DNA of 64,000 nucleotides. Origin: Blastocatellia bacterium. GTDB taxonomy: Bacteria > Acidobacteriota > Blastocatellia > HR10 > J050. The notes below the pieces were generated by a model. That model saw nothing but the letters and a program-made list of their open reading frames with translations. It ran no database searches and was not told where the DNA came from. The stretch spans positions 10,601 to 74,600 of the forward strand of contig JALSQX010000071.1 in NCBI GenBank assembly GCA_026985075.1. The letters are read 5' to 3'. Within the stretch, counting starts at the first letter, position 1. The number at the start of each line of letters is the position of its first letter. Made by a program: the position numbers and the translations under genes. Below, one piece after another: positions 12,454-55,016 of the stretch.

Positions 12454-12471
12454 GGCGCCAGATGATGTGCA

Positions 12472-33631: not shown

Positions 33632-35317
33632 CTACATCCTCACCCAATCAGGCCCACCGCCTCCCTCGGGGGGGACCCAATCAATGATCTGATAGGGATC
33701 CATGATATCGCAGGTCTTGCAGTGAACACAGTTTGAGGCATTGATCTGCAGCGCCTTCTGGCCATCCCCGGTTTCGACCATCTCGTACACGTTGGCCGGA
33801 CAAAAGTACTGGCAGGGGTTCCCATACTCGATCGTGCATCGTTCCGTACAAATATTGAGGTCGCGCACCCGCAAATGGCAGGGCTGATCCTCCTCATGGG
33901 CCGTCCGGGAGTAATAGACATCCGTGAGTTTGTCGAACGTCACTCGTCCATCGACGACGACATCCTCGTCCGGCTGTTTCGATGGCGCGAGGACGCGTCG
34001 TCCATCACTGAGCTTCTTCATCATCGTGTGGCCCGGGTGACTCGGCATGGGGTCTTTCAATCCCCTTCCCCCGGTCAACATCTGTATGGCCGCATTCACC
34101 ATCCCGAAAAGGAAACCCCGCTCGAAGCTTTGATGAAAATTCCGCGCCTTATAGAGTTCAGTTTCTACCCAACTCTCCCGCAGGAGCCTCTCGTAGTGGC
34201 TGAGCTGGTTGGCTGAATAGTCGCCCTTGAGCAGGGCCTGAAAGATGGCCTCAGCGGCCAACATCCCCGATTTCATGGCTAGGTGAATTCCCTTCAATCG
34301 CATCGAATTGAGGAATCCGCCCGAATCTCCAATAATCACCGCACCATCCACATAAGGCCTTGGAATCGCATAGTATCCTCCCTCAGGAAGGCACTTGGCG
34401 CCATAGCGAATGAGCTGACCGCCCTCCAGGAGGCGGTAAATCGCCGGGTGGGCTTTGAATCGTTGAAATTCCCGATGGGCATCGAGTGTGGGGTCCCGAT
34501 AGCTCAACCCCACCACCAGCCCGACACTCAGTAACGTCTCCGATAGCGCGTAAATGAATCCTCCCCCAAAGGCTCGGCCATCCAGGGGGTACCCCATGGT
34601 ATGGATGACCGTGCCTGATCCCAATCTTCCTGGAGGCACTTCCCACAATTCCTTTATGCCAACCGAATAGAGTTGGGGATTCTTCCCTCGATCCAGATGG
34701 AATTTCTCGATCAACGTCTTGGTCAGTGAGCCCCGAACCCCTTCCCCCAGAACAACGACCTTACTCCGAATGTCCACGCCCGGCTCGTAATTCGGCTTCG
34801 GATGTCCATGTCGGTCGAGGCCTCTATCCCCGGTCCGGACGCCGACGACCCGCCCATTGTCATAGAGAAGTTCTGCTCCGGGAAACTCAGGGAAAATATC
34901 GATCCCTGCCGCTTCCGCCTGAGTCGCCAGCCATTTCACAAACTGCCCCAGCGAAATGATGTAATGACCATGATTGCTGAGCGGCGGCGGGATGATCGGC
35001 GACGCCAGTCGGCGCTTTCTGGTCAGAAACCATACCCGATCTTCTGTAACGTTCACCCGAACTGGAGCTCCTCTTTGTTGCCAATCGGGCAGGAGCTCGG
35101 TCAATGCTCGGGGATCGAGGATAGCCCCCGATAGGGTGTGGGCCCCTACTTCTTTCCCTTTCTCAATGATAGCAATCTCGACATGGAGAGGAGACTGGTT
35201 CGTCGTGCGATTGTGCGATTCGATGAGATGAGCCAGATGCAGAGCCCCGCTCAGACTCGCCGGCCCTGCCCCCACGAACAGGACGTCAATATCCAGTGTC
35301 TCTCGCTCTACTGCCAT
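33632..35317 (-). CDS. Electron-transfer flavoprotein:quinone oxidoreductase
   Basis: GAGPA, EKGKEVGAHTLSGA, KGIHLAMKSG, HEEDQPCHL, CPANVYE, NCVHCKTCDI, WVPPEGGGGP. Confidence 0.95.
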   Translation of the reverse strand: MAVERETLDIDVLFVGAGPASLSGALHLAHLIESHNRTTNQSPLHVEIAIIEKGKEVGAHTLSGAILDPRALTELLPDWQQRGAPVRVNVTEDRVWFLTRKRRLASPIIPPPLSNHGHYIISLGQFVKWLATQAEAAGIDIFPEFPGAELLYDNGRVVGVRTGDRGLDRHGHPKPNYEPGVDIRSKVVVLGEGVRGSLTKTLIEKFHLDRGKNPQLYSVGIKELWEVPPGRLGSGTVIHTMGYPLDGRAFGGGFIYALSETLLSVGLVVGLSYRDPTLDAHREFQRFKAHPAIYRLLEGGQLIRYGAKCLPEGGYYAIPRPYVDGAVIIGDSGGFLNSMRLKGIHLAMKSGMLAAEAIFQALLKGDYSANQLSHYERLLRESWVETELYKARNFHQSFERGFLFGMVNAAIQMLTGGRGLKDPMPSHPGHTMMKKLSDGRRVLAPSKQPDEDVVVDGRVTFDKLTDVYYSRTAHEEDQPCHLRVRDLNICTERCTIEYGNPCQYFCPANVYEMVETGDGQKALQINASNCVHCKTCDIMDPYQIIDWVPPEGGGGPDWVRM

Positions 35318-35449
35318 ATGGATCCCCCGGTGTCAAGAGCTTGCTATGTTAACACATAACTTCCTCAAACCGAAAGCGTTTCAACTCCAGGGACACTGCT
35401 CCCCCTCTCGTCTTCGTCGCCGGTTGATACACGCCTGATCAACTTTCTC

Positions 35450-35489
35450 TTGACTTTGTTCCCCCAATTTCATAAACTGGGGAAGTCAA
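35450..35489 (+). promoter_or_regulatory. sigma70 promoter embedded in an inverted repeat (probable autoregulatory operator)
   Basis: TTGACT-17-TAAACT; arms TTGACTT..CCCC / GGGG-AAGTCAA. Confidence 0.7.
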
Positions 35490-35517
35490 AAACGGTCAAT
35501 GGAGGTTGCCACTGGAT

Positions 35518-35715
35518 ATGTTGGCGAATGATGAGGTCCTGACGTCAAAAGAGGTGATGGCGTATCTGCGAATCAGCAAGCCTACTCTGTATCGGATGAT
35601 CCGACTCGGTGATCTGAGAGCCGTGAAGATTGGAAAAAACTATCGTTTCTTGAAAAAAGACGTCGAACGCCTTCTGCGGGCAGACTCCGAATCGGTCAAT
35701 GTGAGGAGTAAATGA
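35518..35715 (+). CDS. Small HTH_17/excisionase-like DNA-binding protein
   Basis: LTSKEVMAYLRISKPTLYRMIRLGDLRAVKIGKNYRF. Confidence 0.9.
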   Translation: MLANDEVLTSKEVMAYLRISKPTLYRMIRLGDLRAVKIGKNYRFLKKDVERLLRADSESVNVRSK

Positions 35716-35718
35716 GCT

Positions 35719-36492
35719 ATGGCCAATGTCATTGCTGTGGCAAACCAGAAAGGAGGAGTAGGAAAGACCACCGTCGCCGTTAATCTGGCCATTGCCGCCG
35801 CACGAAATGGGTTGCAGACGCTCCTTGTCGACGCCGATTCCCAAGCCAATGCCACGAGCACGTTCTTTCCCAAGGAGGGGATCGGTCAATCACTGTATAA
35901 CGTTTTAGAGGAAGGACTTTCGGCTAAGCGGGTCATCCTCCAGACCAACATCATCAACCTTGATTTACTCCCCTCCACCATTCAACTGGCTCGCGAGGAG
36001 ACGAACTTCAATCCGGATACCTTCTTCAGACTGGAGGACGCCCTGCTCGGCTTGGATTACGATCTCATTTTCATCGATGCCCCTCCGAGTCTGGGCGTTT
36101 GCTTCACCCAAGCGTTAGTGGCCGCCGATTACCTCCTCATTGTCACTGTGGCTGGAAAGTTTGCAGCCGAGGGCATTGAAGACCTCAACGATTCCTATGA
36201 ACGCATCAAACGCCGGTTCAACCACAATCTTCAACTTCTGGGATGTGTCCTCAATAAGTTTGATGGGCGGGTGACGGGACACAAGGAGTCCAAGATGTGG
36301 TTGCGCGGCGTATTCGGCAAAAAGGCGTTCAACACAATCATTCCAACACATGCTGCCCTTGAGACAAGCCCTATTGCCGTTCCGGGGACCAAGAGCGATA
36401 TCGCTTTTCAGCAATTGTTCGAAGAAATCGCCCCTCGAATTGGCATCCCATTGGAAGGCAAGGAGGAGATCAGTGGCGAAAAGGAAAAATAA
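35719..36492 (+). CDS. ParA/Soj-family ATPase
   Basis: NQKGGVGKTT, VDADSQANAT, IDAPPSLG, ALVAAD. Confidence 0.93.
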   Translation: MANVIAVANQKGGVGKTTVAVNLAIAAARNGLQTLLVDADSQANATSTFFPKEGIGQSLYNVLEEGLSAKRVILQTNIINLDLLPSTIQLAREETNFNPDTFFRLEDALLGLDYDLIFIDAPPSLGVCFTQALVAADYLLIVTVAGKFAAEGIEDLNDSYERIKRRFNHNLQLLGCVLNKFDGRVTGHKESKMWLRGVFGKKAFNTIIPTHAALETSPIAVPGTKSDIAFQQLFEEIAPRIGIPLEGKEEISGEKEK

Positions 36493-37630
36493 GTTACCCT
36501 TACGCGAGGGAACCAAACTCTCCCCACTGACTGAAGAGGAGCGTCTCGCCAGACGAGCCCGGGGGCATCCACTGGATGCTTTTCCCATCCAGCCACGAAT
36601 GTCTCAATGGCGGGAGGTTGATCCCGGTGAGAGCGCGGCGACCGCTGTCCCGGAAAAGGTTATTGAACGTTCAGTTGAACGTTCAATTGAACGTTCAGCG
36701 AAACGTTCAATTGAACGTTCACTCTCATCCGTAGACGATAGACAAATAAAAGAGGCCTACGTCGCTCTGGACGCCACCCATACGGCATCAGAAGCCAAGA
36801 TCTATGGCTACCTCTATCGACTCTCCATTGCCAAAGGCCAGTCGACGTGCCGCGCTTCTCTGGCCGATTTCCAGAACCGCCTTGGCCTCGCTAAGAACAC
36901 TATTATCAGGGCGTTGCGTGGACTAGCTGAGAAACTCTCCATCGATGTCATCGAGCGCCGCCCAGGTTCTCGCATTGGCTCACTTTACCGGGTGTACAAC
37001 GTTAAGGAGATCCTGAGCCGGCGCAAAGAGGCTGGAATCGAGATCGATGAGCTCAAGCGAATCGTCAGAAAAGGTTCAATTAAACGTTCAGTTGAACGTT
37101 CAATTGAACGTTCGAAAATTGAACGTTCAATGGTTCAAAAATTGAACGTTCAATTGAACGTTCAAGATGAACATAAATCACAAAATAACAGTGACTTAGA
37201 GCTAAAGGTTCAAACGCCTAAGAATTTATATTTAAGAAATGACGATGATGTTGACACATCATCGTCATATAGCGACGATGACGATGATGCTCAAACCCGC
37301 ATCCGTCAGATCTACTGCCATCTCACGGGAAATCCCTGGCGATCCTCTGATTCCAACGCGGCTCAGGAGATTATCCACATTCCGATCGCTCACATCATCC
37401 TTGGCATTTGCTACTCGCTGGACCGCGCAACAAGCCACCGGGTGGGCAGTCTCAAATATTGCGTGCCGTCAATCCTGGACCATTATGAGGCGATGAAGGC
37501 CTTTCCACAAAAAGAGCTGACGGAAATTGCCTATACCCACATGTTGAGAGTCAAACAGGCGCAAAAAACCGGGAACTGGGAACCAGGCAAGCGTTCTCAC
37601 AAGCCCAGAGTGGAGAGCAAAGATCAATGA
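36473..37630 (+). CDS. Putative replication initiator (wHTH) with internal iteron-like repeats
   Basis: GTG start with AGGAGG RBS; SEAKIYGYLY...SLADFQNRLGLAKNTIIRALRGL HTH; acidic linker; C-terminal SLKYCVPSI. Confidence 0.65.
   Translation: MAKRKNKLPLREGTKLSPLTEEERLARRARGHPLDAFPIQPRMSQWREVDPGESAATAVPEKVIERSVERSIERSAKRSIERSLSSVDDRQIKEAYVALDATHTASEAKIYGYLYRLSIAKGQSTCRASLADFQNRLGLAKNTIIRALRGLAEKLSIDVIERRPGSRIGSLYRVYNVKEILSRRKEAGIEIDELKRIVRKGSIKRSVERSIERSKIERSMVQKLNVQLNVQDEHKSQNNSDLELKVQTPKNLYLRNDDDVDTSSSYSDDDDDAQTRIRQIYCHLTGNPWRSSDSNAAQEIIHIPIAHIILGICYSLDRATSHRVGSLKYCVPSILDHYEAMKAFPQKELTEIAYTHMLRVKQAQKTGNWEPGKRSHKPRVESKDQ
36663..36722. repeat. Tandem array of five 12-bp palindromes (TTGAACGTTCAA consensus)
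   Basis: ttgaacgttcag ttgaacgttcaa ttgaacgttcag cgaaacgttcaa ttgaacgttcac. Confidence 0.95.
37071..37165. repeat. Second array of six full plus partial TTGAACGTTCAA palindromes, followed by an AT-rich tract
   Basis: Units at 37080, 37092, 37104, 37119, 37142 and 37154; AT-rich 37166-37240. Confidence 0.95.
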
Positions 37631-37774
37631 TTGGAGCCCCCAACCAAGAAAACCCTGCTTCAGGAACTGATGTGGCCCATCATCTGTCACAGAACTCAAC
37701 CGAGACCACACCACGAAAAAGAGGCCTTGGGCGTATCCTAACCCCATGGAGCGTGTAATGAGGAGAGAGCCATC

Positions 37775-38410
37775 ATGAGTGAAATCGTCATGGCAGCAGT
37801 GGAGCAGTACATGAACGATTTAATCCCCGACCGGGACCCTGTCCTCCGGGAGATGGAGACGTATGCCGAAGAAAACAACATCCCCATCGTTGGTCCGGCC
37901 GTGGGCCGCTTGCTTTTTCAACTCGCTCTCGCGCTTCGAGCCCGTCGCATTTTTGAAATGGGATCGGCGATCGGATATTCGACCATCTGGCTCGCCCGAG
38001 CGGTTACCGATGATGGCGTTGTCTACTATACGGACAGCAATCCCGATAATCTCGATCGGGCCGAGGCGTATTGTCGTCAGGCGGGGGTTTTGAACCGGGT
38101 CACATTCCTGCTGGGGAACGCCCTGGAACTCATTGATCAAGTGGAAGGTCAGTTCGATATCATTTTCAATGACGTGGACAAATATCAATATCCGCAGGTG
38201 TTTTACAAAACGGCGGCGAGGGTCCGCCAAGGCGGATTGCTCATTTCTGACAATGTGCTCTGGAGCGGTCGCGTCGCCAGCGAAGAGAAAGATCACTGGA
38301 CAGAAGCAATTCGTCAGTTCAATCGTTTGATCTATGAGGCTCCTGACTTCTTTACGACGATCATTCCTTTGCGCGATGGAATTTCGCTGAGCTTAAAGCT
38401 CTACAGTTAG
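37775..38410 (+). CDS. O-methyltransferase (Methyltransf_3)
   Basis: IPIVGP, EMGSAIGYSTIW, FDIIFNDVDK, GGLLISDNVLWSG. Confidence 0.92.
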   Translation: MSEIVMAAVEQYMNDLIPDRDPVLREMETYAEENNIPIVGPAVGRLLFQLALALRARRIFEMGSAIGYSTIWLARAVTDDGVVYYTDSNPDNLDRAEAYCRQAGVLNRVTFLLGNALELIDQVEGQFDIIFNDVDKYQYPQVFYKTAARVRQGGLLISDNVLWSGRVASEEKDHWTEAIRQFNRLIYEAPDFFTTIIPLRDGISLSLKLYS

Positions 38411-38798
38411 TGACGAGCGGGTCATTCTTCGGAGAAGGGAAAATCCGAATAAAAGCATCACCAGGCCATTCGTGGCAAGACCTTCTTTGATGAAGGGACA
38501 ATCCTATCGCGCCCTGCTTCATTGATGTGGACACACTGGAGATAGCCGAATACAGGGAGAGCGACTTCCAATCACTCATCGGCTGATTCTTTCGGGCAAC
38601 GAGTAGCATTTTCCTCATTCTGGCTGCGAACTCGGCCGTGATCCACCTCACCGAATATTGCTGCATCTTCGAGAGCGTAACAATCGAGTGGGACGAGGCG
38701 GGAAACGAAAATCCCCATTGCCGCGCCGCCCTTACACATAAGCCGAGTGGCGACGAATCCTCCCCGCCGGGAGATGCCAATCGATGCTGAGGCCGCTT

Positions 38799-39206
38799 TC
38801 AGATCTTGAATAAACGATCAAAAGCCTGTCGAGGATCTTTAATCTGCGATGGCGAGGTGGACGTCTCCCGCTCCACTGTAATGCGCGCACGAAAATACTC
38901 GCACTGATTCGGCTTGTCTTTGGGAGTGACGCGAGCGGGAATCGGTTGAGAGCACTCGAACCGACTACCGGTGTCAAAATAGACGCAATTTTTACAACAG
39001 TGGAGATAGGCCTGGCACTTCGGACATTGACTATCATACGTAATCCCAAATTGCACCGGCATGACATACCCGCACAAGGCACAGCGAAACACCTCGCGCA
39101 CGCCAGGGAGCTTCGGCGCACGGGTGCCTTGACGACGCTGAGGAGGACGACGTTTCTCCTCTTCGTAATCTTCCATATATCCGCGTTGTTTATATTTTCT
39201 GCTCAT
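38799..39206 (-). CDS. Cys-rich putative zinc-binding hypothetical protein
   Basis: CALC, CPKC, HCCKNC.YFD, C..., NQCEYF, AFDRLFK. Confidence 0.8.
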   Translation of the reverse strand: MSRKYKQRGYMEDYEEEKRRPPQRRQGTRAPKLPGVREVFRCALCGYVMPVQFGITYDSQCPKCQAYLHCCKNCVYFDTGSRFECSQPIPARVTPKDKPNQCEYFRARITVERETSTSPSQIKDPRQAFDRLFKI

Positions 39207-39410
39207 GAGAAATTCCTTCCTCGCTGTTTGGTGTGTCAACGACGCACTTGGTGGAGAAACAGCTTCTCATTATAGCCTTTCAATCGCCGTTTGAACAAAT
39301 GATAAACGATTTCTTCATGCTCCTCAGAACCTGTCATGGCGCACAGCCCTGGGTTTTCTCATCTCCGCCTTCACTGTCGACCGAAGGCCTGAGATCGCAG
39401 AGATACTGGA

Positions 39411-40241
39411 CTATCGATTAGGGAGGGCTGATCGGGTGATCACTTTTTTGACCCCTTTCACCCCTCGCGCGAGAGCCGCCGCGCGCTCGAGTTCTGATTC
39501 GCTCCCCTCGGTCAAGGTCAGAGTCACCACGCCGTCGGTGACGCCGATCGCAATGTGAGAGAGTTCTACGTCGGGATCAGCCCTCAAGACGTCCTGGATA
39601 TCGTAAAGGATCTGTTGATCGGAACGGCGTTTGGTGAAAGCGTGCTTGATGGCTTTCCCGGTTGCTTTCACGCCCTTTCCTGTTGCTTTGCCCGCTGTGG
39701 CTGTCGCCTTTCCAGTTGCTTTCCCGGCGGTGGTGGCTCCAGAGGCCGTCGCTTCAGCTCCGGTAACAGCCCCTTTCTTGGTCGCCTTGGCAGCTGTCGT
39801 CCCTGCTTTGGCCGTGGCTTGGGCGGCTGTGGTCGCCCCCTCAGCAACGGCGCCCCCAGTCTTTTTGATGGCCGATCCGAATTTTCCGAGGATGCCTTTG
39901 CGCCTGGGTTTCGTCTCTTCCTCCTCGAGTGGAATCCCTAACGCGGCTATCGTCGCTTCATCAAGGTGACCGGTCACCGGGAGACGATGCGCTCGCTGGA
40001 AATTGCGCAGCGCCTCGCGCGTTTGTGGACCGATGATGCCATCGATCGCACCACCATAATAACCTTGCTCGGCTAACTTCCGTTGGATTTTTTTAACGAG
40101 ATCGCGGCTCAGCCGCAGTTCTGGTTCCTGCCACGCCGATCCAGTTGGACGAACGGCCGCATTCGATCCGACCGGCCTGGCGAGAACGAGACCTGTGAAG
40201 AAAAACAAGCCGACGAGCGCAAAGATCGTTGATTTCATCAT
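39411..40241 (-). CDS. Peptidoglycan-binding protein with Ala/Thr/Lys-rich linker and BON domain
   Basis: IQRKL..GYY.G.IDGIIGPQTREALRNFQ; C-terminal V.DGVVTL...GVKGVKKV. Confidence 0.85.
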   Translation of the reverse strand: MMKSTIFALVGLFFFTGLVLARPVGSNAAVRPTGSAWQEPELRLSRDLVKKIQRKLAEQGYYGGAIDGIIGPQTREALRNFQRAHRLPVTGHLDEATIAALGIPLEEEETKPRRKGILGKFGSAIKKTGGAVAEGATTAAQATAKAGTTAAKATKKGAVTGAEATASGATTAGKATGKATATAGKATGKGVKATGKAIKHAFTKRRSDQQILYDIQDVLRADPDVELSHIAIGVTDGVVTLTLTEGSESELERAAALARGVKGVKKVITRSALPNR

Positions 40242-40367
40242 CTCCGTAATCCCTCGGTTCGTGGTTAGAGTCCCGGCATGAGCGATGCCATGTCTGATGC
40301 TACGTTTCCCGTGAGTTGGCCACCAACAAGTGGCTTCCGGTATCAACTTGCTCTCCGGCCGGAGAGC

Positions 40368-40925
40368 TCATGTCTTGCGCTTCGAGAACGTTGCCAACTT
40401 TTCCGGTTTTCCCTGGCGAGCGTTCGTTACTCGAGCGAGAACGAACAGTAAATCGGACAACCGGTTCACGTATGGTAACAGCACCGGGTTGATCGCTTCC
40501 TGGTGACTGAGTTGAACGATGCGTCGTTCGGCGCGACGAGCGACGGCTCGGGCCAGGTGCAGAATCGCTCCTCCCCGGCTCCCTCCAGGGAGGATGAATT
40601 CCTCGAGCGGAGGGAGTTCCCGATTACATTCATCGATCGTGCGCTCCAATTGGGACACCCACTCATCCTTCACCCGAGGCGCGTCAACGTCCAGCGGACT
40701 TGCCAGATCGGCGCCCACGGTGAAAAGTTCGTTCTGGAGCCGCTCGAGGGTGGCGTCAATCGATGCGTCGCTGATCTCAGCACGGGCGATGCCCAGGAGA
40801 GAATTCAGCTCATCGATCTCCCCATAGGCTTCTACGCGCAATGATCCCTTGCTCACGCGCCGGCCACCAACCAGCATCGTTTGTCCCTGATCACCGCTCC
40901 GAGTGTAAACCTTCGTTATGCGCAT
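40368..40925 (-). CDS. ATP:cob(I)alamin adenosyltransferase (PduO-type)
   Basis: KVYTRSGDQG, AYGEIDELNS, FILPGG, ARRAER, NRLSDLLF. Confidence 0.93.
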   Translation of the reverse strand: MRITKVYTRSGDQGQTMLVGGRRVSKGSLRVEAYGEIDELNSLLGIARAEISDASIDATLERLQNELFTVGADLASPLDVDAPRVKDEWVSQLERTIDECNRELPPLEEFILPGGSRGGAILHLARAVARRAERRIVQLSHQEAINPVLLPYVNRLSDLLFVLARVTNARQGKPEKLATFSKRKT

Positions 40926-41733
40926 GACTTTCGCCTGTTTGATGCTCCTGCTCCTCGCGCCAGATCTCTTCGAGCTTCTGATAACTGGGAGGGAATTGAC
41001 CGGTGTACCGCAGAAAGGCTGGAATCGGGTATCGAATACCCCCTTGATAAGTTCCTTTGAGTCCTTCGATGAAGTCCCCGGCCAAACGAGCCGGTAATGA
41101 AAATGCCATTTCGTGGTCCTCGGTTTGACCGAAAACACGATCTCCGTAACAAGGCAAAATGACCTGATAATCTTGCGTATTCATCGTGCGAATGATCTCA
41201 TCAGAGCAGTCGAGTCGACCAGTAAAACTGGAAGTGATCGCTCCTCCTCGCTTGTAGAGGGCGGCCGCCACCATACGCATGACTTGGGCCGGATTGGCGT
41301 ACACCAGGTAAACGTGAGGCTCGAAGCGGGCCGTCGATGCCGGCCCAACGAGGATGCGCTCGTAGCTCCGATAGGGAAAGCGATCAGTGGCAGCTTCGGA
41401 TTTTGCGCCCGCCTCCAGTGTTTCTGTGTACATGCCGCAGGCGCAGTGACCTTCTGTGTAATAGGGCACCTCTTTCTCCAGGCCAAAAACGACCTTGGTC
41501 AGGACACAATTCAAATCGGCGCGCCCCACAGCGATGGTCCACCCATAACGTCGGGCCATGGAGATCGCTTGACAGGTGGCGATTTGAAGGTTCCAGTCCT
41601 TCTTGGGTTGTTTCGTTTTTGGTGGAAGGGGTTCGCCCGGCGACAACATGCGAATGGCCAGAGGGAAGCTCTGTGGTCGAACGTATGTCTCCACTTGTCG
41701 AGCGAATGTTTGTGGATCTACCATGCCCACCAT
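40891..41733 (-). CDS. DUF169 family protein
   Basis: CQAISMARRYG, NPAQVMR, LPCYGDR. Confidence 0.8.
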   Translation of the reverse strand: MVGMVDPQTFARQVETYVRPQSFPLAIRMLSPGEPLPPKTKQPKKDWNLQIATCQAISMARRYGWTIAVGRADLNCVLTKVVFGLEKEVPYYTEGHCACGMYTETLEAGAKSEAATDRFPYRSYERILVGPASTARFEPHVYLVYANPAQVMRMVAAALYKRGGAITSSFTGRLDCSDEIIRTMNTQDYQVILPCYGDRVFGQTEDHEMAFSLPARLAGDFIEGLKGTYQGGIRYPIPAFLRYTGQFPPSYQKLEEIWREEQEHQTGESHAHNEGLHSER

Positions 41734-44531: not shown

Positions 44532-45019
44532 ATTCCCGGTTTGCTCTCACTCTGCATAAGGACGAGAGTTCCCCTCACGACATCAGGTGCATCTTGACGG
44601 TGAGTTGTGGGACGGTGGTCACCCGATTGGAGAGTGATTGCGCGGATGCCTGTAAGAAACACGTCCATCGGATGGTGTACCGTTGCTCGAATGGTGTGGG
44701 CGAGTCACTTTCTCTCCCGGAAGGACGCCAACGGTGGGACGAGCGTCCCGAAGTCTCGTGCTCCAGATCGCGGCATTCGCTGTCCGGTCGCCCGACCAAT
44801 GGTAGGCTGGTCCGTCAGAGACCCGCGCTTCGGGTCATCGGCGCCGCGTTCTGACCGGGTCAGACAGGATGCGCAGTATTGTCGCCGGGCTTTCCATCAC
44901 GGCTGTGAGACTTCTCCTCTGAAAAGAGCCACAGATTTCACCGATGCGCACAAATCAAACCTCTTCTGTGAATCGGCGACTCCCCGTTCATCCTCGCGGT
45001 GTGGTCCTAGGCCATAGAT

Positions 45020-45144
45020 GTGGCGCAAACGGACAGCTTGCGCTACTTCCCCTAACCAATCCCTTTTCGTCCTTGCCGTATGGCCCATAGGCCATGGATG
45101 ACTCCGTTGAAAAAGGGTAGCGCAAGATGGGATCTTTGCGCTAC
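45020..45144. repeat. Pair of REP-like palindromes
   Basis: gtggcgcaa..cttgcgctac (45020-45046) and gtagcgcaa..ttgcgctac (45117-45144). Confidence 0.65.
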
Positions 45145-45436
45145 GCGTGTTCATCCCCTCGGTGCGGCTCGCCAGTCACTCCCTTGACTTGCGTCCGAGA
45201 TGGAGTGCTCCTATAATGCCCGGCGAGCTGGAGCGTGTGTTGGCGTTGCCCTTCCGACCTTGGGAGGAGGAGAAACTGGTGAGCTGTGAGACGAAATAGG
45301 GTGACGATTGGTATTTTCCCCCTCCTGGAGCGGAAGAGAACGTCCTTCCGGCCGGAGAGCCAGGGCTGACGCCCGGTGGTGGACATCGCGTCGCGGCAGG
45401 TCATGAGCCGCTTTTGAGGTCTCTGTGGGAGGAGGC

Positions 45437-46132
45437 ATGGGACGTCCGAACGATCTGTCGCCCTGTGGAGAGAATCCATCCTGCGCGCTCTGTCACCGAC
45501 TGTCCGACCTCTGGTTGCGAATCGAGGAGTTGTCCCTCCCGGTGGCCTATCCAGCCCGGCGCCGCATCTTTAAACAGGGCGAGACTCCTGCTCATCTTGT
45601 GGTCGTCTGCTCGGGAGCGGTGCGGCTCTATGGGGCTCATCCTGGTGGTCGACCGATGACTTTTCGCGTCGCCCAACCGGGTGATCTGCTCGGTCTGGCG
45701 GCGGTCGTCACCCGGCAACCTTATGCCTTTTCCGCCGACACCATTTTCCCCTGCAGCTTGCGCCTGGTGCCTGGGCGCGCCTTCCTCCGCGCGCTGGAGG
45801 CCGAGCCGACATTATGGGCTCATGTGGCCGAGGAGATCGCCCGCCGACACTACGACATGGCCGAGCAGTTGAAGCAGCCACCACGCCAGCGCTTGATTCG
45901 ACTGCTGCTGGCGTTCAGCGTCCTGGTGGGTTCATCGCCGCGGCGTGCGCCTCGCCATGTTGTCCGATTGACTAATGAGGAGCTGGCCGATCTGGTGGGT
46001 CTGTCCGAGCGCCGGGTGCGGCAGTATCTGGCCGAGTTGAGGGGGCAGGGGGTGATTACGCGCCGTCGGGGGTGGCTGGAGATTGCCGACCGGGAGCGGC
46101 TGCGAGGCATGATCGGGAAGGGTCGGCGATGA
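45437..46132 (+). CDS. Crp/Fnr-family regulator
   Basis: IFKQGE, SGAVRL, PGDLLG cNMP domain; LTNEELADLVGLS HTH; N-terminal C..CxxC. Confidence 0.9.
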   Translation: MGRPNDLSPCGENPSCALCHRLSDLWLRIEELSLPVAYPARRRIFKQGETPAHLVVVCSGAVRLYGAHPGGRPMTFRVAQPGDLLGLAAVVTRQPYAFSADTIFPCSLRLVPGRAFLRALEAEPTLWAHVAEEIARRHYDMAEQLKQPPRQRLIRLLLAFSVLVGSSPRRAPRHVVRLTNEELADLVGLSERRVRQYLAELRGQGVITRRRGWLEIADRERLRGMIGKGRR

Positions 46133-46186
46133 GGAAGGGGAGGATGGGGCGGGCTATGGAGGGAGCATCTGGAGTGAGTCGAAACC

Positions 46187-46244
46187 GGAAACGTTTCCGC
46201 CTTGGAGGCGGCAACATTTCCGGTTTTTGGGGGGAAACGTTTCC
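46187..46244. promoter_or_regulatory. Three 12-bp palindromes GGAAACGTTTCC at 23-bp period
   Basis: Copies at 46187, 46210 (GGCAACATTTCC) and 46233. Confidence 0.7.
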
Positions 46245-46375
46245 TGGTAGGGATGGGGATTGGGGATTAATATGGTGGCGTGGCGATATTGTTGGTACGC
46301 CATCACGGCAGTTGGGCGAGTCCGGAGGAGGACCACAGCCGAGGTGTTCTCCGAGGGGCTCGGGGAGGGCGTCTC

Positions 46376-49236
46376 ATGAGGCGATGGAGGAGCGTGCTGC
46401 TCATCTGTGGTGGGATTCTGGTCATTGGGGTGATGTGGTTGGCAGGGAGCGGGTGGGGGGCGTCTGGGGCGGCGGTGCAGTTTGTGCTGCGGGAGGAGAT
46501 TCGGGGGCCGTACTGGACGGTGGATGAGGGGTTCCAGGCCCGGCTGATGTTGAGCAACACGACGGATGAGCCGATACGGGTCTATCCGGAGGTGTATGCG
46601 GCGACTGGGGAGGGGGTAGTGTTGCCCTGGTTGGCGTTGCGGGAGCACGAGCGGCGGGAGGTGGATCTGGGGGCGTGGCTCAGCGAGCAGGGGGTGGAGT
46701 TCACCTCGGGGAGTTTGCGGTTGCGGCACACGGGAGGGTTTTATGCGCTGGCCGCGCAGGTGACCCTTGTCAACACGGCGAGGAGCTGGTCGTTCGATCT
46801 GCCGGTGGAGCCGCCGGGGCTGTTTCATCGGTCGCGGGTGCTGGAGGGGGTGTGGTGGGTGCCGGGTGACGGCGGTGAGGCGCGGCTGGTGGTGAGCAAC
46901 ACGCTGGAGGCGCGGCTGCCGGTGGAGGTGACGGCGCCGACGCCCTGGGTGCAGATCACCAGCACGACGGTTGATCCTCCGTTCGATCTGGATCCGGCGG
47001 CGATGGGGGAGACCGTGCCGCTGCGCGTCCGAGTGCATCACTCGGCAGGGATGTCGGGGCAGGCGGTCACCGTGTCGATTCGGCGGGTGGAGCCGGCGCT
47101 GGACAGTTGTCTTGTCACAGCGCCTCTCGGCGGCGAGCCCGAGGCTCAGCAGACCCGGGTCATTGCGTCCACTCAGACGGGCGAGAGGGACCTGGAGTTC
47201 GCGTTCGACGTGGTGGTGGGGCTGGACTCCTGTGACGGGCTGGTGAGGTATCAAGCCATGGTCTCTGGTGCCGTGGAGGTGACCGTGCGGCCGCCAGTAC
47301 AAGATGAGGCACTGTTTCAGGTCGAGCGAGCCAAGTTGCAGATCAAGGAGACGAGTTTTCCGGCGCAGAGTGTCGCCCCGGGCGAGACGGTTCAACTGAC
47401 CGTGCGCGTACATCATTCCGCGGGGGTACATGAGTTGGTCGGCGTGCGCATTGCGCGTGCCGATGCCGATGCCTGTGTGCTGACCACGCCATTGGAGGCC
47501 ACGCAACAGCAGGCCATCGATGTCGTAGGGTCAGGCGATCTGCTGTTTGTCTTCGACATCACCGTGGGGGTGGACACCTGTCAGGGGAATTTCATCTATG
47601 CCGCCGAGTTGCTTCCCTTGCCGGGACATGTGGTTTACCTCAGGCCGGCGGAACCGGACGATGGGGAAGGGGGGTGTGCTGTTTTACGGAGTATATGGAT
47701 TGAGAGCGCGGAGTTTCTGCCTCCCGGCCGAGAGCCGGGGCAATCATCGGCGCTGACCGTCGTCGTCCGCAGTGATCCGGGCGTGCCGTTGGGTACGGCG
47801 ATAACGGTACGGGTGGAGATGCGTTCTACGCAGCCGGCGGCGGGATGTCCGGTGGTGGTGAGGCCGACGGTGGCCGAACTCTCCCATGTCCTCAATCCCG
47901 GGGATGGCACCGGGGGGAGCACCACATACGTGTTCACCATCACCGTGGACTCGGGATCGTGTGCCGGGACGGTGACCTATCATGCCAGCATCACCACTGC
48001 ATCGAGCGAGTCCTTCACGGTAGTCGAGACGCCGCATCAGGACGCGACCCTCACCGTCTCGGCGGCGGCCTCGGGGGAGTTGCGGCTGTTTCTTGATGTG
48101 GAGGATAATTTCGATGTGAGCCGGCCGCGGAGCGATATTGACGAGTATCTGCCGGGGGCGAAGCTGGACGGCAGGAGTGTGAGTTTGCCGCAGAGGGTGA
48201 AGCTGATTGCCGCGTTTGTGGACTCCAGCACGGGCGCCATCGTGGCGCCGCCGAGCGGGGTCGATCAAGTGAGCTTCGCGCTGCAGGGGACGTCGGCGTT
48301 CAAGGGGATAGCGATGAACTCTGGGAGTGAGACGACGGCGGATTTCAGTCTGTCAGCCACCACGGCTTCATTCTCGGCAGATCACACGGCGCGGGTGGAC
48401 TTGGTGTGTCACGATTATGGGGGATTCACGACGGTGCGGGCGAGTGCGGGAGGGCAGACGGTCGAGATGCGCGTGCCGAAAGATGACAACGGCAACTGGT
48501 TGCCGGATGGGGTGTGGAGGGTGATCGCGAATGGACGGGTGATCGGCGAAATCATGGATACAGGTTTGGCGACCGATGCGGACGAGGATGTGAATCCGAT
48601 GGGGAACGGGGTAGATGGGGATGGGTTGGTGAATTTCGAGGAGTTTCGTGGCTTCATGGTGCGGGGGGAGCACCGGAGAACGAATCCTTTCCAGAAAGAT
48701 TTGTTTATCTCTAGTGACTTGCCTCAGAACATTGGGGATGTCATCAACCTTCCTGTGACGAAGCATTGGATTTTCAAAATCAGATGGATGCGAACAGGAT
48801 CATTAACTTCAATCGTTCGAATTCCGGATTCGGAGGCTCGATTCCAACGATCTTTGATCAACATGCATTGATGGTAATTGATATGGGTCGTGGCCCAGGG
48901 GGTATATTTGGTCAGGTCACTGCTGTAGGATCCCCAAACGTGCAGACAGGGCCGATAGAGATTTATACTCTATATATCCGGTTCGCCAGTCCTCCGCATA
49001 ATGATTTCATCAACGAGGATCCTTTTGATGATGAGAAGACGCGGCAGACGATCGGACACGAAGTGGGACATGGAGTGAACATTGTCCATCGCTTCCCCAG
49101 CCAATACCCACCAGGACCATTATCAGTGATGGTCACCGGATATTTCATGGTCACCAGCAACATCAATGATCCGGCGTGGAACAATATTCCACATAACTAC
49201 GATGCAACTGATGAACAACAAATTCGAGTGAGGTGA
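46376..49236 (+). pseudogene. Large secreted Ig-like repeat protein with C-terminal metzincin domain; frameshift at 48771-48774
   Basis: Signal peptide, three Cys-pair Ig-like repeats, DGDGLVNFEEFRGF; one extra T joins it to ...HEVGHGVNIVH...SVM. Confidence 0.75.
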
Positions 49237-49246
49237 AGACTTATGA
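48922..49246 (+). repeat. ~325-bp direct repeat, copy 1
   Basis: Near-identical to 50408-50732 (two mismatches seen). Confidence 0.95.
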
Positions 49247-50145
49247 CACAGCCAACGTGCATACTTCTGGTTAGTTTAGCAATTGGCGGTATTTTTTTGC
49301 CGCAAGATGAGCATCTTTATTCTTTTGTTCGCGTAGGCGAGAGCTACGGGACAACATATACTCCGCCACCAGCCGAGGGAGCCTACTTCGTATTTTTCCA
49401 AGGTGAACCCATCACGGTTCGATTGGATATTCTCAATGAAGGCTCCAAAAAGGCGATGGTCGTTGCAAATGAGCTGAGACCCGAGGAAGCTTTCCGGATG
49501 ACGGTCCTAAAAGCTCCCACGCCGGAAGTGAAAGGTCGCCTTGGTATTGAAGTTTCTCCCTCCGTCAAACTGATACTTCCAAAGACCGCCATTTCGGCTG
49601 AGTGGTCGGAGCGAATCGAGTTGCCCCCGCGGTCCAGACTGTATTTCGAGGCGAGGGTGACAAGTGAACAAGAGGCCTTACCACCAGGCATCTACCACTT
49701 GAAGTTTCGATGCCGACTGAAGAGTGCATCGGGAAAGGAGATTCCGGCGCACAGCGAGATTTTTCAATTCGAGATCAGAGCGGTCGAGACGTTCGAGGAT
49801 CGCCTCGAAGTTCTCAGGAGGCAGGCGGCGCGGCTCTCTACCAGGGGTGAATATGAAGAAGCCGAGAAGAAGCTGGATGAATTACTGTTATTATACCCGA
49901 ACAGTTCTCATAGTTACATAGAGAAAGGCAACATGGCCATGGTTCAGGGGAAAAAAGACGAGGCAGCCAAGGCGTACCAAAGAGCCCTTGATCTCCTTCA
50001 ATCGAGGATGGACACGATTTATTTGTCCTATGCTCATGATGTATCGATCGAACATACTATTGGTTTTCTTCTGGCGACGCTTCGATCTCTTCAAGGTGAG
50101 CTTGAGGGTGAGAGCCACCGCAAAGGGCACAGGGAGCCACGGTAG
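49243..50145 (+). CDS. Exported TPR-containing protein (partner/immunity-like) 1
   Basis: Hydrophobic N-terminus, beta domain, then GEYEEA...YP...KG...GKKDEA..AY..AL TPRs. Confidence 0.8.
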   Translation: MTQPTCILLVSLAIGGIFLPQDEHLYSFVRVGESYGTTYTPPPAEGAYFVFFQGEPITVRLDILNEGSKKAMVVANELRPEEAFRMTVLKAPTPEVKGRLGIEVSPSVKLILPKTAISAEWSERIELPPRSRLYFEARVTSEQEALPPGIYHLKFRCRLKSASGKEIPAHSEIFQFEIRAVETFEDRLEVLRRQAARLSTRGEYEEAEKKLDELLLLYPNSSHSYIEKGNMAMVQGKKDEAAKAYQRALDLLQSRMDTIYLSYAHDVSIEHTIGFLLATLRSLQGELEGESHRKGHREPR

Positions 50146-50231
50146 ATATCACAATGGTTTGCCTGTTAATCAAAATGGGACCCGCAATGAGAGCCAAGAG
50201 GGATGCTGGTTCCGTTGTGTATCAAGTCAGC

Positions 50232-50722
50232 ATGAGGAGAGTGACGCGAAGAACAGGTCGGTTGTTGGGCATTCTGATCCTGAGTGGGTCCATCCTGGTC
50301 TCCCTTCAACTCCATGGGATTCACGCTCAATCCTCGACCTACACGGTCACGTCCGTAGTTCAGGTGGGAGCCCTGCCGCCGGGTGAGGAGGGTGGTGCGG
50401 CTTCAGCGCTGTAGGATCCCCAAACGTGCAGACAGGGCCGATAGAGATTTATACTCTATATATCCGGTTCGCCAGTCCTCCGCATAATGATTTCATCAAC
50501 GAGGATCCTTTTGATGATGAGAAGACGCGGCAGACGATCGGACACGAAGTGGGACATGGAGTGAACATTGTCCATCGCTTCCCCAGCCAATACCCACCAG
50601 GACCATTATCAGTGATGGTCACCGGATATTTCATGGTCACCAGCAACATCAATGATCCGGCGTGGAACAATATTCCACATAACTACGATGCAACTGATGA
50701 ACAACAAATTCAAGTGAGGTGA
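50232..50722 (+). pseudogene. Signal-peptide fragment fused out of frame to an orphan metzincin C-terminus
   Basis: MRRVTRRTGRLLGILILSG...HAQ joined at 50408 to repeat copy 2; stop at 50414. Confidence 0.7.
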
Positions 50723-50732
50723 GGACTTATGA
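50408..50732 (+). repeat. ~325-bp direct repeat, copy 2
   Basis: Offset 1486 bp from copy 1. Confidence 0.95.
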
Positions 50733-51598
50733 TACAACAAATGTGTATGCTTTTAGCTTGCCTGGTGATTGGCTCTCCCTTTTCACTGCAATTCGGATAT
50801 GAGCATATTTCCCTCTTCGTGCGGGTGGGAGAACACTTCGGAACAGTGTATACTCCGCCACCGACAGGGGGAGCTGATTTCGTCATTTTCCAAGGCGAGC
50901 CAATCAAGATCGAACTAGAGATTTTCAATGAAGGCTCTAAGGAGGCAGTGGTTGTTACTCGTGGGATAGCGCCAAAAGATGCTTTTCACATGGTGGTAGT
51001 AGAAGCCCCAATGTCTAAGGTGAAGCCCCAACTCAGCCTGGAAGTTTCTCCCTCCGTCAAGTTGAGGCTCACAAATGCAGAAATATTGGCTCACTGGTCC
51101 GAGCAAATCGTCTTGCCTCCCCAGTCAGGACTCAAGTTCGAGGCAGTCGTGGTGAGCGGATTGGAACGCTTGCCGACCGGGATCTACAAGTTGAAGTTCC
51201 GTTCGCTTCTTAAGAGTGCTTCAGGAAAAGACATCCCAGCAAACAACGATACATTCACATTCGAGATCAGAGCGGTAGAGACGTTTGAAGATAGATTGGA
51301 GGTGCTCGGAAGGCAGGCGATGCGCCTTTTTGTGAGAGAGAAATACCAGGAGGCGGAGAAGAAGCTGAATGAGGTGCTTCTGTTATATCCGAACAGTTCG
51401 GGCAGTTACACAATGAAAGGGCACATAGCCATGGCTTTGGGAAAAAAAGATGAAGCAATTAAGGCCTATAGAAAAGCGCTCGATTTACTTCAGTCAAAAA
51501 TGGATACACTGTACTTATCCCATGCGAGCAGCGTATCAGTAGAGCACAGCATTGGTTTTCTTTTGGCGACGTTGAGCGCACTGCAAAAATCCCGATAA
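50729..51598 (+). CDS. Exported TPR-containing protein (partner/immunity-like) 2
   Basis: Clear but diverged paralog of 49243-50145 (FVRVGE, FQGEPI, FEIRAVETFEDRLEVL). Confidence 0.85.
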   Translation: MIQQMCMLLACLVIGSPFSLQFGYEHISLFVRVGEHFGTVYTPPPTGGADFVIFQGEPIKIELEIFNEGSKEAVVVTRGIAPKDAFHMVVVEAPMSKVKPQLSLEVSPSVKLRLTNAEILAHWSEQIVLPPQSGLKFEAVVVSGLERLPTGIYKLKFRSLLKSASGKDIPANNDTFTFEIRAVETFEDRLEVLGRQAMRLFVREKYQEAEKKLNEVLLLYPNSSGSYTMKGHIAMALGKKDEAIKAYRKALDLLQSKMDTLYLSHASSVSVEHSIGFLLATLSALQKSR

Positions 51599-54026: not shown

Positions 54027-55016
54027 TCAAGCTAAAGACAACATGCGCTCGATGGCTCGCCGAGCCCGCCGGGCGATCTCCTCGGGCACGCGCACTTCGT
54101 GGACCATGTCCTCGAGAGAAGTGAGCACCTTCTCCAGAGTGATCATCTTCATGTATTGACACACGGCCTCGGGGTCCACGGGGATGAACCGCTTATCGGG
54201 ATTCTCCTTTTTCAGCCGATGAAGGATGCCCACTTCGGTGGCCACGATGAACTCCCTGGCCGATGACTGGCGAGCATGCTTGATCATCCCGCCAGTGGAC
54301 AGAATATGGGTTCCATTTGATGGGATGTCCCCATCGGCAATATAGTACATGCACGAGGTGACGCATCCGCATTCCGGATGGATGAGGAACTCGGCGGCGG
54401 GGTACCGCTGCCGAATGGCTTTGATGTCAGCCGGAAGAATACCCGCGTGAACGTGACACTCTCCCATCCACAAGTGAAGCTTTCTGCCAGTGATCTTCTG
54501 GACATAGGCGCCAAGGTACATATCGGGAAGGAAGAGGATCTCCCGATCTTCGGGGATCGACCGAACGACGTTCACGGCGTTACTCGATGTGCAACAATAG
54601 TCGGCTTCTGCCTTCACTTCGGCTGACGTGTTGACGTACGCCACGACCACCGCTTCGGGATGCTGAGACTTCCAGCGCCGAAGCTGCTCGGCGGTCACCG
54701 TCTCGGAGAGCGAGCATCCGGCGTGAGGATCGGGGATGAGGACCTTCTTGTCGGGACAGAGAATGGCCGCCGTCTCGGCCATGAAGTGGACGCCACAGAA
54801 GACGATGACGTCGGCCTCGGTCCTCGCCGCGGCCTGAGAGAGTCCCAGCGAATCGCCGACGAAATCGGCCAAATCCTGAATGGGGCCGATTTGATAGTTG
54901 TGCGCCAGAATGACGGCATTTCGCTTTCTTTTGAGATCGAGGATGCGCTCGACGAGTTTCGCCTGATCAGACCCGTTTCTCTTTCGGGATTCGGATGATG
55001 TATTGAGCATATCCAT
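54027..55016 (-). CDS. nadA: Quinolinate synthase A
   Basis: ILAHNYQ, GDSL, FCGVHFMAETA, AGCSL, YVNTSA, CTSSNA, HPEC, MKMITL. Confidence 0.97.
   Translation of the reverse strand: MDMLNTSSESRKRNGSDQAKLVERILDLKRKRNAVILAHNYQIGPIQDLADFVGDSLGLSQAAARTEADVIVFCGVHFMAETAAILCPDKKVLIPDPHAGCSLSETVTAEQLRRWKSQHPEAVVVAYVNTSAEVKAEADYCCTSSNAVNVVRSIPEDREILFLPDMYLGAYVQKITGRKLHLWMGECHVHAGILPADIKAIRQRYPAAEFLIHPECGCVTSCMYYIADGDIPSNGTHILSTGGMIKHARQSSAREFIVATEVGILHRLKKENPDKRFIPVDPEAVCQYMKMITLEKVLTSLEDMVHEVRVPEEIARRARRAIERMLSLA

Follow-up and report, generated by a model that had tools for sequence, protein, structure and literature searches.

What is the function of a short gene cassette that joins a partition ATPase to a protein whose own coding sequence contains two arrays of a perfect palindrome? 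This question is raised by positions 35450-37630 of a stretch of 64 kb from contig JALSQX010000071.1 of a Blastocatellia bacterium. The stretch (in the following called the window) corresponds to positions 10601-74600 of this contig, which we refer to as C71; coordinates without a contig name are those of the window. The genome to which C71 belongs (G000) comprises 5.2 Mb in 105 contigs and is 98.7% complete. The cassette consists of three genes in one orientation, encoding a small HTH_17 protein, a ParA-type ATPase and a protein of 385 amino acids with a winged helix-turn-helix (wHTH) domain. We consider it likely that the cassette is the replication and partition module of a circular, chromid-like secondary replicon of about 125.3 kb in a Blastocatellia-like acidobacterium from a hot environment. 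The initial annotation of the locus had already suggested a replication and partition module with palindromic iterons, and the GC skew, the repeats within the protein family, the circular contig and the matches to initiator families agree with this suggestion. DNA binding, the unwinding site, recruitment of a helicase, the partner of ParA and replication itself we infer from sequence data.

Palindromic arrays inside the third gene of the cassette

The third gene contains the following elements, with the strand given in brackets and a dot for features without strand:

36473 to 37630 (+): initiator ('Rep'), 385 amino acids, GTG start behind AAGGAGGAG, 20-nt overlap with the end of parA
36662 to 36721 (.): iteron array 1, 5.0 units of 12 bp (ATTGAACGTTCA type), from Tandem Repeats Finder and a pattern count; codes for a predicted disordered segment
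36770 to 37073 (+): part coding for the wHTH DNA-binding domain, about residues 100-200; AlphaFold2 pLDDT 73-88 at residues 101-190, HTH_36 at 105-154
37074 to 37165 (.): iteron array 2, about 7.5 units of 12 bp, containing two small spacers and a change of reading frame, from Tandem Repeats Finder and a pattern count
37166 to 37240 (.): AT-rich tract, candidate DNA-unwinding element directly 3' of array 2, 28% GC
37277 to 37582 (+): helical C-terminal domain, residues 269-370, probably DnaD-like; AlphaFold2 pLDDT 71-90, match to phrog_7498

From the N-terminus to the C-terminus the protein is composed of a conserved basic region, the segment encoded by array 1, the wHTH domain, the segment encoded by array 2, an acidic, serine-containing linker and the helical C-terminal domain. 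The AlphaFold2 model was built on a shallow alignment of eight rows.

A search of the window for TTGAACGTTCAA with at most one mismatch yielded nine matches (five exact and four with one mismatch) compared with a mean of 0.18 in shuffled sequences, and none of 100 shuffles reached nine. All nine are located within 36663-36722 and 37092-37165. In the complete 5.2-Mb assembly the exact sequence is present in five copies, all of them in the initiator gene, and the reversed control pattern in one. The unit is a perfect palindrome. The figure of about 11 palindromes in two arrays, given in the initial annotation, is a fair count because the arrays defined by Tandem Repeats Finder hold 5.0 and 7.5 copies. 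The use of two reading frames, also proposed there, was found again: array 1 encodes the peptide IERS VERS IERS AKRS IERS, and array 2 opens in the IERS frame (SIKRSVERSIERSKIERS), passes through an irregular stretch of 23 nt and continues in the frame that gives ...KLNVQLNVQ.

The codons of the arrays differ from those used elsewhere. Arginine is encoded by CGT in 9 of 9 codons versus a genome usage of 11%, serine by TCA in 9 of 10 codons versus 7%, and glutamate by GAA in 7 of 7 codons versus 6 of 23 in the remaining gene. Because tandem copies share codons by descent, a comparison across species is the stronger test. We used four orthologues with 61-83% protein identity and scored identical residues for identical codons. 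Within the arrays the codons were identical at 43/44, 35/36, 34/35 and 36/37 of these residues, whereas the corresponding values outside the arrays were 157/261, 82/189, 92/205 and 78/200 (39-60%). In addition, the out-of-frame reading LNVQLNVQ is invariant in 8 of 8 close homologues. The two frames, the frozen codons across orthologues and the perfect palindrome therefore indicate that selection acts on the DNA sequence rather than on the peptide, as the use of two frames had initially suggested.

These data also bear on the explanation that the repeats are low-complexity linkers at the peptide level, which arose by slippage and have no function as DNA. The segments encoded by the arrays (residues 40-98 and 202-268) are predicted to be disordered linkers with an AlphaFold2 pLDDT below 50, and the length of array 1 varies among orthologues, as such linkers would allow. 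Nevertheless, a perfect palindrome is meaningless for a peptide, and slippage does not explain a unit in two frames with an invariant out-of-frame peptide, nor synonymous positions that are frozen inside the arrays and not outside. Other lineages, moreover, keep the same layout with different, mostly symmetric motifs. We regard linkers of this kind as highly improbable.

Directly behind array 2 the previously noted AT-rich tract has a GC content of 28% compared with 50% for the whole initiator gene, and the 60-nt window with the lowest GC content of this gene spans 37129-37189. The gene shares with the lambda O type of origin the presence of internal iterons which adjoin an AT-rich tract, and the skew described below suggests a function as origin. 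A DnaA box was considered as a further element and dropped. The only exact TTATCCACA in the window is located within the initiator gene (37371-37379), about 200 nt past array 2; it was judged to be a chance match because the window shows no excess of boxes with at most one mismatch (7 versus 7.9 expected) and because this box is absent from four orthologous loci.

The cassette is also present in a second independent sample (run X2, from another study), with about 97-99% identity. Among the 40 differences listed over three long pieces none lies inside the palindromic units, with thin cover at the arrays and contigs that break there. The assembly-graph contigs of both X1 and X2 break exactly at the two arrays (window 35400-37700).

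A probable circular replicon and its relatives

The first 201 nt of C71 recur at its end with 200 of 201 identical positions, and among the contigs above 3 kb in this assembly of 105 contigs no other has an end overlap of this sort. Closure restores an open frame of 333 amino acids, of which residues 48-330 align with three full-length paralogues of about 300 amino acids on other contigs. Judged from its ends, C71 is most likely circular, with a length of 125,309 bp.

The change of the GC skew close to the cassette adds one feature:

37000 to 41000 (.): GC-skew switch zone, negative (left arm) to positive (right arm), cumulative G-C minimum at about 40900

Along C71 the cumulative G-C has a single minimum at 51.5 kb and a single maximum at 94 kb, with the AT-rich tract at 47.8 kb. 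The minus-to-plus switch, for which the initial annotation had proposed to look, is located within about 4 kb of the cassette. The order minus, plus, minus on the linear contig is explained by a circle with one minimum and one maximum. A gene-strand effect or an inversion as cause of this pattern was considered and rejected in view of the arm-wise skew and the circular closure. In this genome the skew follows the replication arm and not the gene strand; for example, ten genes that lie right of the cassette on the minus strand show a positive top-strand skew. The orientation of the genes on C71 follows the two arms strongly (30/32, 22/32 and 18/20 genes). The dnaA gene is located on another contig, C83, with a minus-to-plus skew switch of its own.

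Near the skew maximum at 94,000 and outside the window, C71 contains a dif-like 11-6-11 site, GCGTCCGATAA-N6-TTATGAAATAC (C71:96848-96875). The pattern GCGTCYGATAA-N6-TTATGAAMTAM was detected three times in the genome (C71:96848, C22:95956 and C35:30749), each time near a cumulative skew maximum, which suggests three Xer-resolved replicons. Two tyrosine recombinase genes are located at 74.8 and 92.7 kb of C22, beside the dif-like site of this contig. As far as the sequence tells, an 11-6-11 site near the skew maximum and XerC/D in the same genome would correspond to a Xer/dif system. Contig C35 (52.7 kb) carries, at 1111-1392, 12186-12518 and 30749, a ParB_N gene, an open reading frame (ORF) akin to the C-terminal domain of the initiator with an in-frame TGA, and the dif-like site at the skew maximum; this contig may belong to a third replicon. 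On C71 a PIN-domain (VapC-like) gene (C71:95610-96086) is situated at a distance of about 0.8 kb from the dif-like site and may act as a toxin-antitoxin stabiliser of the replicon.

The gene content of C71 was analyzed with Pfam for 75 proteins. Outside the cassette no replication, relaxase, conjugation, integrase or phage structural domains were found in these 75 proteins, and lysis or terminase domains were likewise not found among them. C71 has no match for tyrosine recombinases, whereas the genome has six elsewhere, in agreement with the initial impression that no integrase is present. The other proteins are transporters, TonB receptors, amidohydrolases, regulators, a molybdoenzyme, the PIN-domain protein and products of core-type genes. 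The cassette itself is flanked by metabolic genes; the neighbourhood had been called housekeeping, which is too strong a term for them.

The only matches of the genome to NadA (quinolinate synthase) and to CtaA/COX15 are both on C71 (window 54030-55118; C71:99873-100409). A heme O synthase-type gene of the UbiA family, COX3, DUF420, a thiD-like gene and ETF-QO are present as well. Chromids are reportedly recognised, following Harrison and colleagues in 2010, by plasmid-type maintenance, core genes that other species carry on the chromosome and a chromosome-like composition. C71 carries the ParA-Rep cassette while dnaA is on C83; it holds nadA and ctaA as sole copies, their presence being read from the sequence; and its GC content of 56.9% is close to the 58.8% of the genome, with 56.2-59.8% in the large contigs. 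By these criteria the sequence of C71 is that of a chromid-like replicon.

We sampled 201 genomes of the class (one of them, G129, unpublished). Matches to the initiator at E≤1e-10 were obtained in 42 of them, mostly to a single domain, and full-length genes are present in 10, with four copies in G012. The cassette of G002, a genome from another genus within the family, is likewise bordered by ETF-QO and, on its opposite side, by an O-methyltransferase, and nadA is adjacent. There the cassette lies at a minus-to-plus switch of contig C7, and a core of about 7 kb has the opposite orientation to that of the arms. Between G002 and G000, the identity of orthologous proteins on these contigs is mostly 44-73%. 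Among eight further loci the gene is located at a clear skew switch in G039, G047 and G190 (contig C41). On G039:C4 (270 kb) the cumulative skew reaches its minimum at 175,000, inside the gene (174,124-175,281), and on G047:C31 (279 kb) at 115,000, with the gene (115,672-116,937) 0.7 kb away. On both contigs the arm effect persists within each gene-strand class. In 5 of 5 genomes checked dnaA is on other contigs.

G039:C4 and G047:C31 share little DNA, and G071:C29 is syntenic with G039:C4. Of the 203 ORFs on G039:C4, 78 have a homologue in G000, scattered over many contigs; therefore one initiator family appears to drive different large accessory replicons. The four paralogues of G012 are on contigs of 15-27 kb (C131, C185, C136 and C119), with ParA upstream in three of the four. 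Other genomes (G079, G099, G103) contain many initiator fragments with internal stop codons, and the sequence suggests that these are decayed copies.

The module could also be a remnant of an integrated plasmid or prophage, domesticated or silent, with a local skew reversal caused by an inversion. The linear contig with its plus block of only about 50 kb fits this explanation, as do the metabolic flanks and the lack of any mobility gene found. On the other side, closure through the 201-nt overlap restores a gene, and one minimum and one maximum are expected on a circle. The skew switch at the cassette is seen in a second genus as well, and the skew of an old inversion would presumably have decayed by then. 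Finally, the module is not silent, because the arrays are under strong purifying selection. We consider a remnant improbable. The initial annotation had offered a chromid, a megaplasmid or a domesticated element. A chromid-like state is the part of this proposal that stands, and an element integrated in the chromosome is the part that does not, because the contig closes to a circle and holds the only nadA and ctaA of the genome.

The proposed initiator family and its repeats

The 385-residue protein matches phrog_7498, annotated as 'DnaD-like helicase loader', with E=2e-9 over residues 118-348 (profile positions 49-262 of 296). PHROG names are annotations and not tested functions. When 26 family members were scanned singly, HTH_36 was found in 7 and Phage_rep_O (PF04492) in 3 of them (best 1.4e-5); the query itself has no PF04492 match. 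The profile phrog_678, 'replication initiation O-like', matched 5 of the 26 members (best 4.2e-14) and phrog_18020 matched 3 (9.3e-12), and families named 'DnaD-like helicase loader' and 'replication initiation protein' matched 3-4 members each. All annotated PHROG matches of the family concern replication; three matching PHROG families are unannotated. The remaining Pfam matches are to unrelated families in single members with E≥0.007. The comparison with lambda O made in the initial annotation finds support in these family matches, which are weak yet consistent (Phage_rep_O in 3/26, the O-like PHROG in 5/26). Because the family matches initiator models of PHROG and Pfam, and its profile aligned to lambda O at E=0.15, the protein is classified from its sequence as a distant O-like/DnaD-like initiator and not as a PF04492 member. 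The C-terminal domain is a candidate recruiter of the helicase or of a helicase loader.

Further searches were made for related initiators. PF01051 (Rep_3) and PF06970 (RepA_N) gave no match for the query at E≤0.1 and are absent from the families matched by the 26 members at E≤0.05. A language-model search gave a weak lead to DnaB_2/PF07261 clusters, and Pfam DnaB_2 itself matched neither the query nor the family. A sequence profile compared with PDB chains resulted in one match at chance level (E=0.57). A word-indexed search of 5.8 billion proteins returned seven relatives, all 'hypothetical', and searching 1.84 billion cluster representatives with a profile gave 279 at E≤1e-3, 33 of them at E≤1e-30; ten of the 279 were looked up and none has a functional name. 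Three divergent family members had no tblastn match in PLSDB (72,556 plasmid records).

The similarity to phage O-like and DnaD-like initiator families raises the possibility that the circle represents a prophage or phage-plasmid, whose lytic or lysogenic replication the cassette would serve. The content of C71 speaks against a phage: the 75 scanned proteins include no structural, lysis, integrase or terminase domain, and the circle holds the only nadA and ctaA of the genome. Furthermore, one family member had no match in 50,697 phage records, and one scan of viral contigs revealed no relative. A phage origin of the circle is in our opinion very improbable.

Repeats within the gene are a property of the whole family. 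Of 36 related loci from genomes and metagenomes, 34 have a 10-mer that recurs inside the gene in at least three copies. The D[AS]TH anchor matched in 14 loci, and in 13 of these the repeats flank the part coding for the wHTH on both sides, mostly in steps of 12 bp. The motifs are specific for the lineage and mostly palindromic (TTGAACGTTCAA, TACGGGAGTA, TACCCCGGTA, TACAG[GT]AGTA, TGGGATACC and TTGATCAA). Across the 36 loci the motif tracks the class of the recognition helix, which in the protein studied here is predicted to be AKNTIIRALRGL:

Helix AKNTIIRALRGL: motif TTGAACGTTCAA, 5 loci
Helix SRNT[VI]HKALYGL: motif TGGGATACC, 9 loci
Helix SDRT.RRA.DGL: motif TACGGGAGTA or TACCCCGGTA, 8 loci
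Helix SDKTVR[MI]A[VI]RGL: motif TACAG[GT]AGTA, 4 loci
Helix SRATVTKA[IL]AGL: motif TTGATCAA-like, clearest in G047 and G039, 5 loci

The co-variation of repeats and HTH that had been proposed as a check on homologues was therefore found, and as a sequence pattern it is the one expected of initiator-iteron pairs.

Taken together, these results suggest the following mechanism. The protein would be a distant lambda-O/DnaD-like initiator, the winged helix of which binds, probably as dimers, to the TTGAACGTTCAA sites at 12-bp spacing in the two arrays flanking the wHTH-coding DNA. Loading of the arrays would open the adjacent AT-rich tract just past array 2, and the helical C-terminal domain would bring the host helicase or its loader. 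Bidirectional forks would then meet about 49 kb rightward and 76 kb leftward, near the dif-like Xer site. ParA, translationally coupled to the initiator, would segregate the copies, and the small HTH protein would probably autoregulate the operon.

Several findings weigh against an origin and initiator of this kind. At the level of the protein, the only Pfam match of the initiator is HTH_36 with E=1.5e-3, below the Pfam cut-off, and the hhalign comparison of the family profile with lambda O, although it aligned the winged helices, was not significant at the E-value given above. The structural check by Foldseek against the PDB did not identify an initiator: the model retrieved generic winged-helix regulators alone (CodY, MarR, FNR), none at E≤0.001, with scores that are depressed by the two long disordered segments. 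Co-variation of helix and repeat is confounded by co-inheritance, both being within one gene. The AT-richest window adjoins array 2 in only about half of 20 family loci and is otherwise in or beside array 1. At the level of the replicon, the genome is a metagenome bin, and circularity is based on the end overlap and the restored gene rather than on reads. The Pfam scan covered 75 of the approximately 97 ORFs of at least 120 amino acids. The arrays do not coincide with the skew minimum, which lies 3-4 kb to their right. On G002:C7 a dif-like site (25138) and a plus-to-minus switch are only about 10 kb from the cassette (35.1-37.2 kb), which would imply very unequal arms, barring a fork barrier or a rearrangement of recent date. 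The four short contigs with paralogues in G012 show no clear skew, and G095 offers a single 4-kb window to the right of the gene. Finally, partition sites also cluster near origins, so that origin and centromere are not distinguishable by skew at this scale.

Partition genes, known systems and significance

The first two genes of the cassette and the region in front of them comprise:

35450 to 35489 (+): candidate operon operator, promoter-like site with inverted half-sites, from a sigma-70-like scan and reading of the sequence
35506 to 35715 (+): small HTH_17 (MerR/excisionase-type) protein, 69 amino acids from a TTG start, Pfam HTH_17 E=1.2e-16
35719 to 36492 (+): ParA-type partition ATPase, 257 amino acids, AAA_31 E=3.9e-43, CbiA E=1.4e-24

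The sequence TTGACT-17-TAAACT at 35450-35478 is the sole sigma-70-like site within 35200-37900, and it is bracketed by the inverted half-sites TTGACTT (35450-35456) and AAGTCAA (35483-35489). This corresponds to the promoter within an inverted repeat that had been described before, with arms that are short; the pair TTGAC...GTCAA is present upstream in 4 of 4 aligned orthologous loci. For the small HTH gene the ATG at 35518, preceded by GGAGG, is the more likely start. Relatives of its product occur beside close orthologues alone (four distinct loci). The protein is probably the regulator of the operon, autoregulating the promoter just upstream. It had been proposed as an adaptor of ParA, which is doubtful; because it is found beside close orthologues only, it is unlikely to be a general partner of ParA.

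ParA has a deviant Walker A motif (KGGVGKT, residues 11-17) and no N-terminal HTH, and in both respects and in its small size it resembles type Ib partition ATPases. The type Ib arrangement includes a small centromere-binding gene directly 3' of parA; here the 385-residue initiator is encoded at this position instead, and the sole small DNA-binding protein of the cassette, which is lineage-specific, sits upstream of parA. Five orthologues of ParA have 86-96% identity, and the next relatives drop to 45%. As side observations, ParA is conserved far more (86-96%) than the initiator (56-85%) across orthologous replicons, and its relatives beyond the orthologues (at most 45% identity) include chromosomal ParAs of the Soj type. 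The absence of ParB from the operon, reported in the initial annotation, extends to the contig: C71 has no ParB_N match, and the three of the genome are on other contigs.

This arrangement leads to a different explanation of the arrays. They could be a centromere and the wHTH protein the substitute of ParB for ParA, while replication starts elsewhere, for example through host DnaA. Centromeres are often arrays of short repeats near origins, the gene overlaps parA by 20 nt, no ParB_N protein is encoded on C71 and the basic N-terminus is conserved among orthologues. In addition, ParA is directly upstream and on the same strand in 18 of the 32 family loci with enough upstream sequence. The other 14 loci, however, keep the arrays without an upstream ParA, and the matches of the family in the libraries are all initiators or helicase loaders with no partition protein among them. 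Replication from another site finds no candidate on C71: there is no other initiator-like gene among the 75 scanned proteins, and the only exact DnaA box of the window is not kept in orthologues. Arrays that serve solely as centromere are in our view unlikely.

We also considered that the initiator doubles as the partner of ParA. In such a two-gene unit without ParB the arrays would be both iterons and centromere, the basic N-terminus would be a ParA-activating tail, and the arrays may pair by looping or handcuffing and so set the copy number. We put this forward tentatively and give it a small chance. Prediction of a complex between a ParA dimer with ATP and residues 1-60 of Rep gave scores of 0.24 and 0.14 compared with a mark of 0.32, which has no bearing either way on binding.

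Elsewhere on C71 two observations were made that do not concern the cassette. Window positions 45000-48900 have 64-65% GC and a skew of +0.2 to +0.26, well above the surroundings; an ORF of 866 amino acids in this block (46271-48871) has no Pfam match at E≤1e-5. Six paralogous-looking proteins of about 270-350 amino acids, with TPR near the C-terminus only, occur scattered along the right arm in stretches with about 49-51% GC (window 49237-51598; C71:80527-87332).

Returning to the preferred interpretation as origin and initiator, the closest parallel is lambda O with ori-lambda. In both cases the origin lies inside the gene of the initiator, and iterons with inverted symmetry follow just past the part coding for the N-terminal winged helix, with an AT-rich tract behind them. 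The lambda record annotates four iterons at nt 349-433 of the O gene. The peptide encoded by the iterons of lambda O links the DNA-binding N-domain to the C-domain that recruits the helicase loader, a layout to which we liken the one found here. In contrast to lambda O, two arrays flank the wHTH-coding part on its two sides; their units measure 12 bp and stand head-to-tail, and are not spaced sites of 18-19 bp; and the gene is coupled to parA on a cellular replicon of 125 kb, with relatives on contigs of at least 270 kb. DnaD-like phage initiators and helicase loaders (PHROG 7498 and 186; PF07261) have the same order of a winged helix and a helical C-terminal domain. DnaD-like proteins are not known to have arrays of iterons inside their genes, as present here.

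RepA_N plasmids of Firmicutes (pAD1 and pSK41 types) have iterons in the centre of the rep gene and an adjacent partition operon, similar to the cassette. Their iterons are direct repeats in a single block. The cassette differs from them in the host, in the protein family and in the missing PF06970 match. In classical iteron plasmids (Rep_3/RepA-RepE-Pi; pPS10, F, R6K) the initiator also acts on repeats beside an AT-rich element, and repeat and protein co-evolve. Those iterons are direct repeats of 17-22 bp located outside the gene, and the monomers that bind them have two winged helices, whereas here palindromes of 12 bp are inside the gene and no Rep_3 match exists. Vibrio chromosome 2 (RctB/ori2) and repABC chromids share with C71 an initiator other than DnaA, a ParA of their own, core genes and a composition like that of the chromosome. 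C71 is distinguished from them by an unrelated initiator family, its much smaller size of 125 kb and the lack of a detected ParB. An origin within the initiator gene and iterons next to an AT tract are already known, as in lambda. The palindromic layout with two arrays is new, as are the host phylum, the protein family and a coupling to ParA that does without ParB.

Soils and hot environments are rich in Acidobacteriota, which count among the least genetically tractable bacteria. In the literature searched we found no description of a replication origin or plasmid replicon for this phylum, and no relevant description of the 12-mer TTGAACGTTCAA. With its defined pair of protein and DNA sites, the 2.2-kb cassette forms a self-contained candidate replicon from which shuttle vectors could be developed. 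The unnamed initiator family is missing from the plasmid and phage reference collections searched, and for this reason plasmid-typing tools will not recognise these replicons. C71 would represent a small chromid, a circle of 125 kb with the sole copies of genes for the biosynthesis of NAD and haem A. For the family as a whole a rule emerges in which two lineage-specific palindrome arrays bracket the sequence coding for the DNA-binding domain, and this rule can serve to predict cognate sites in every member.

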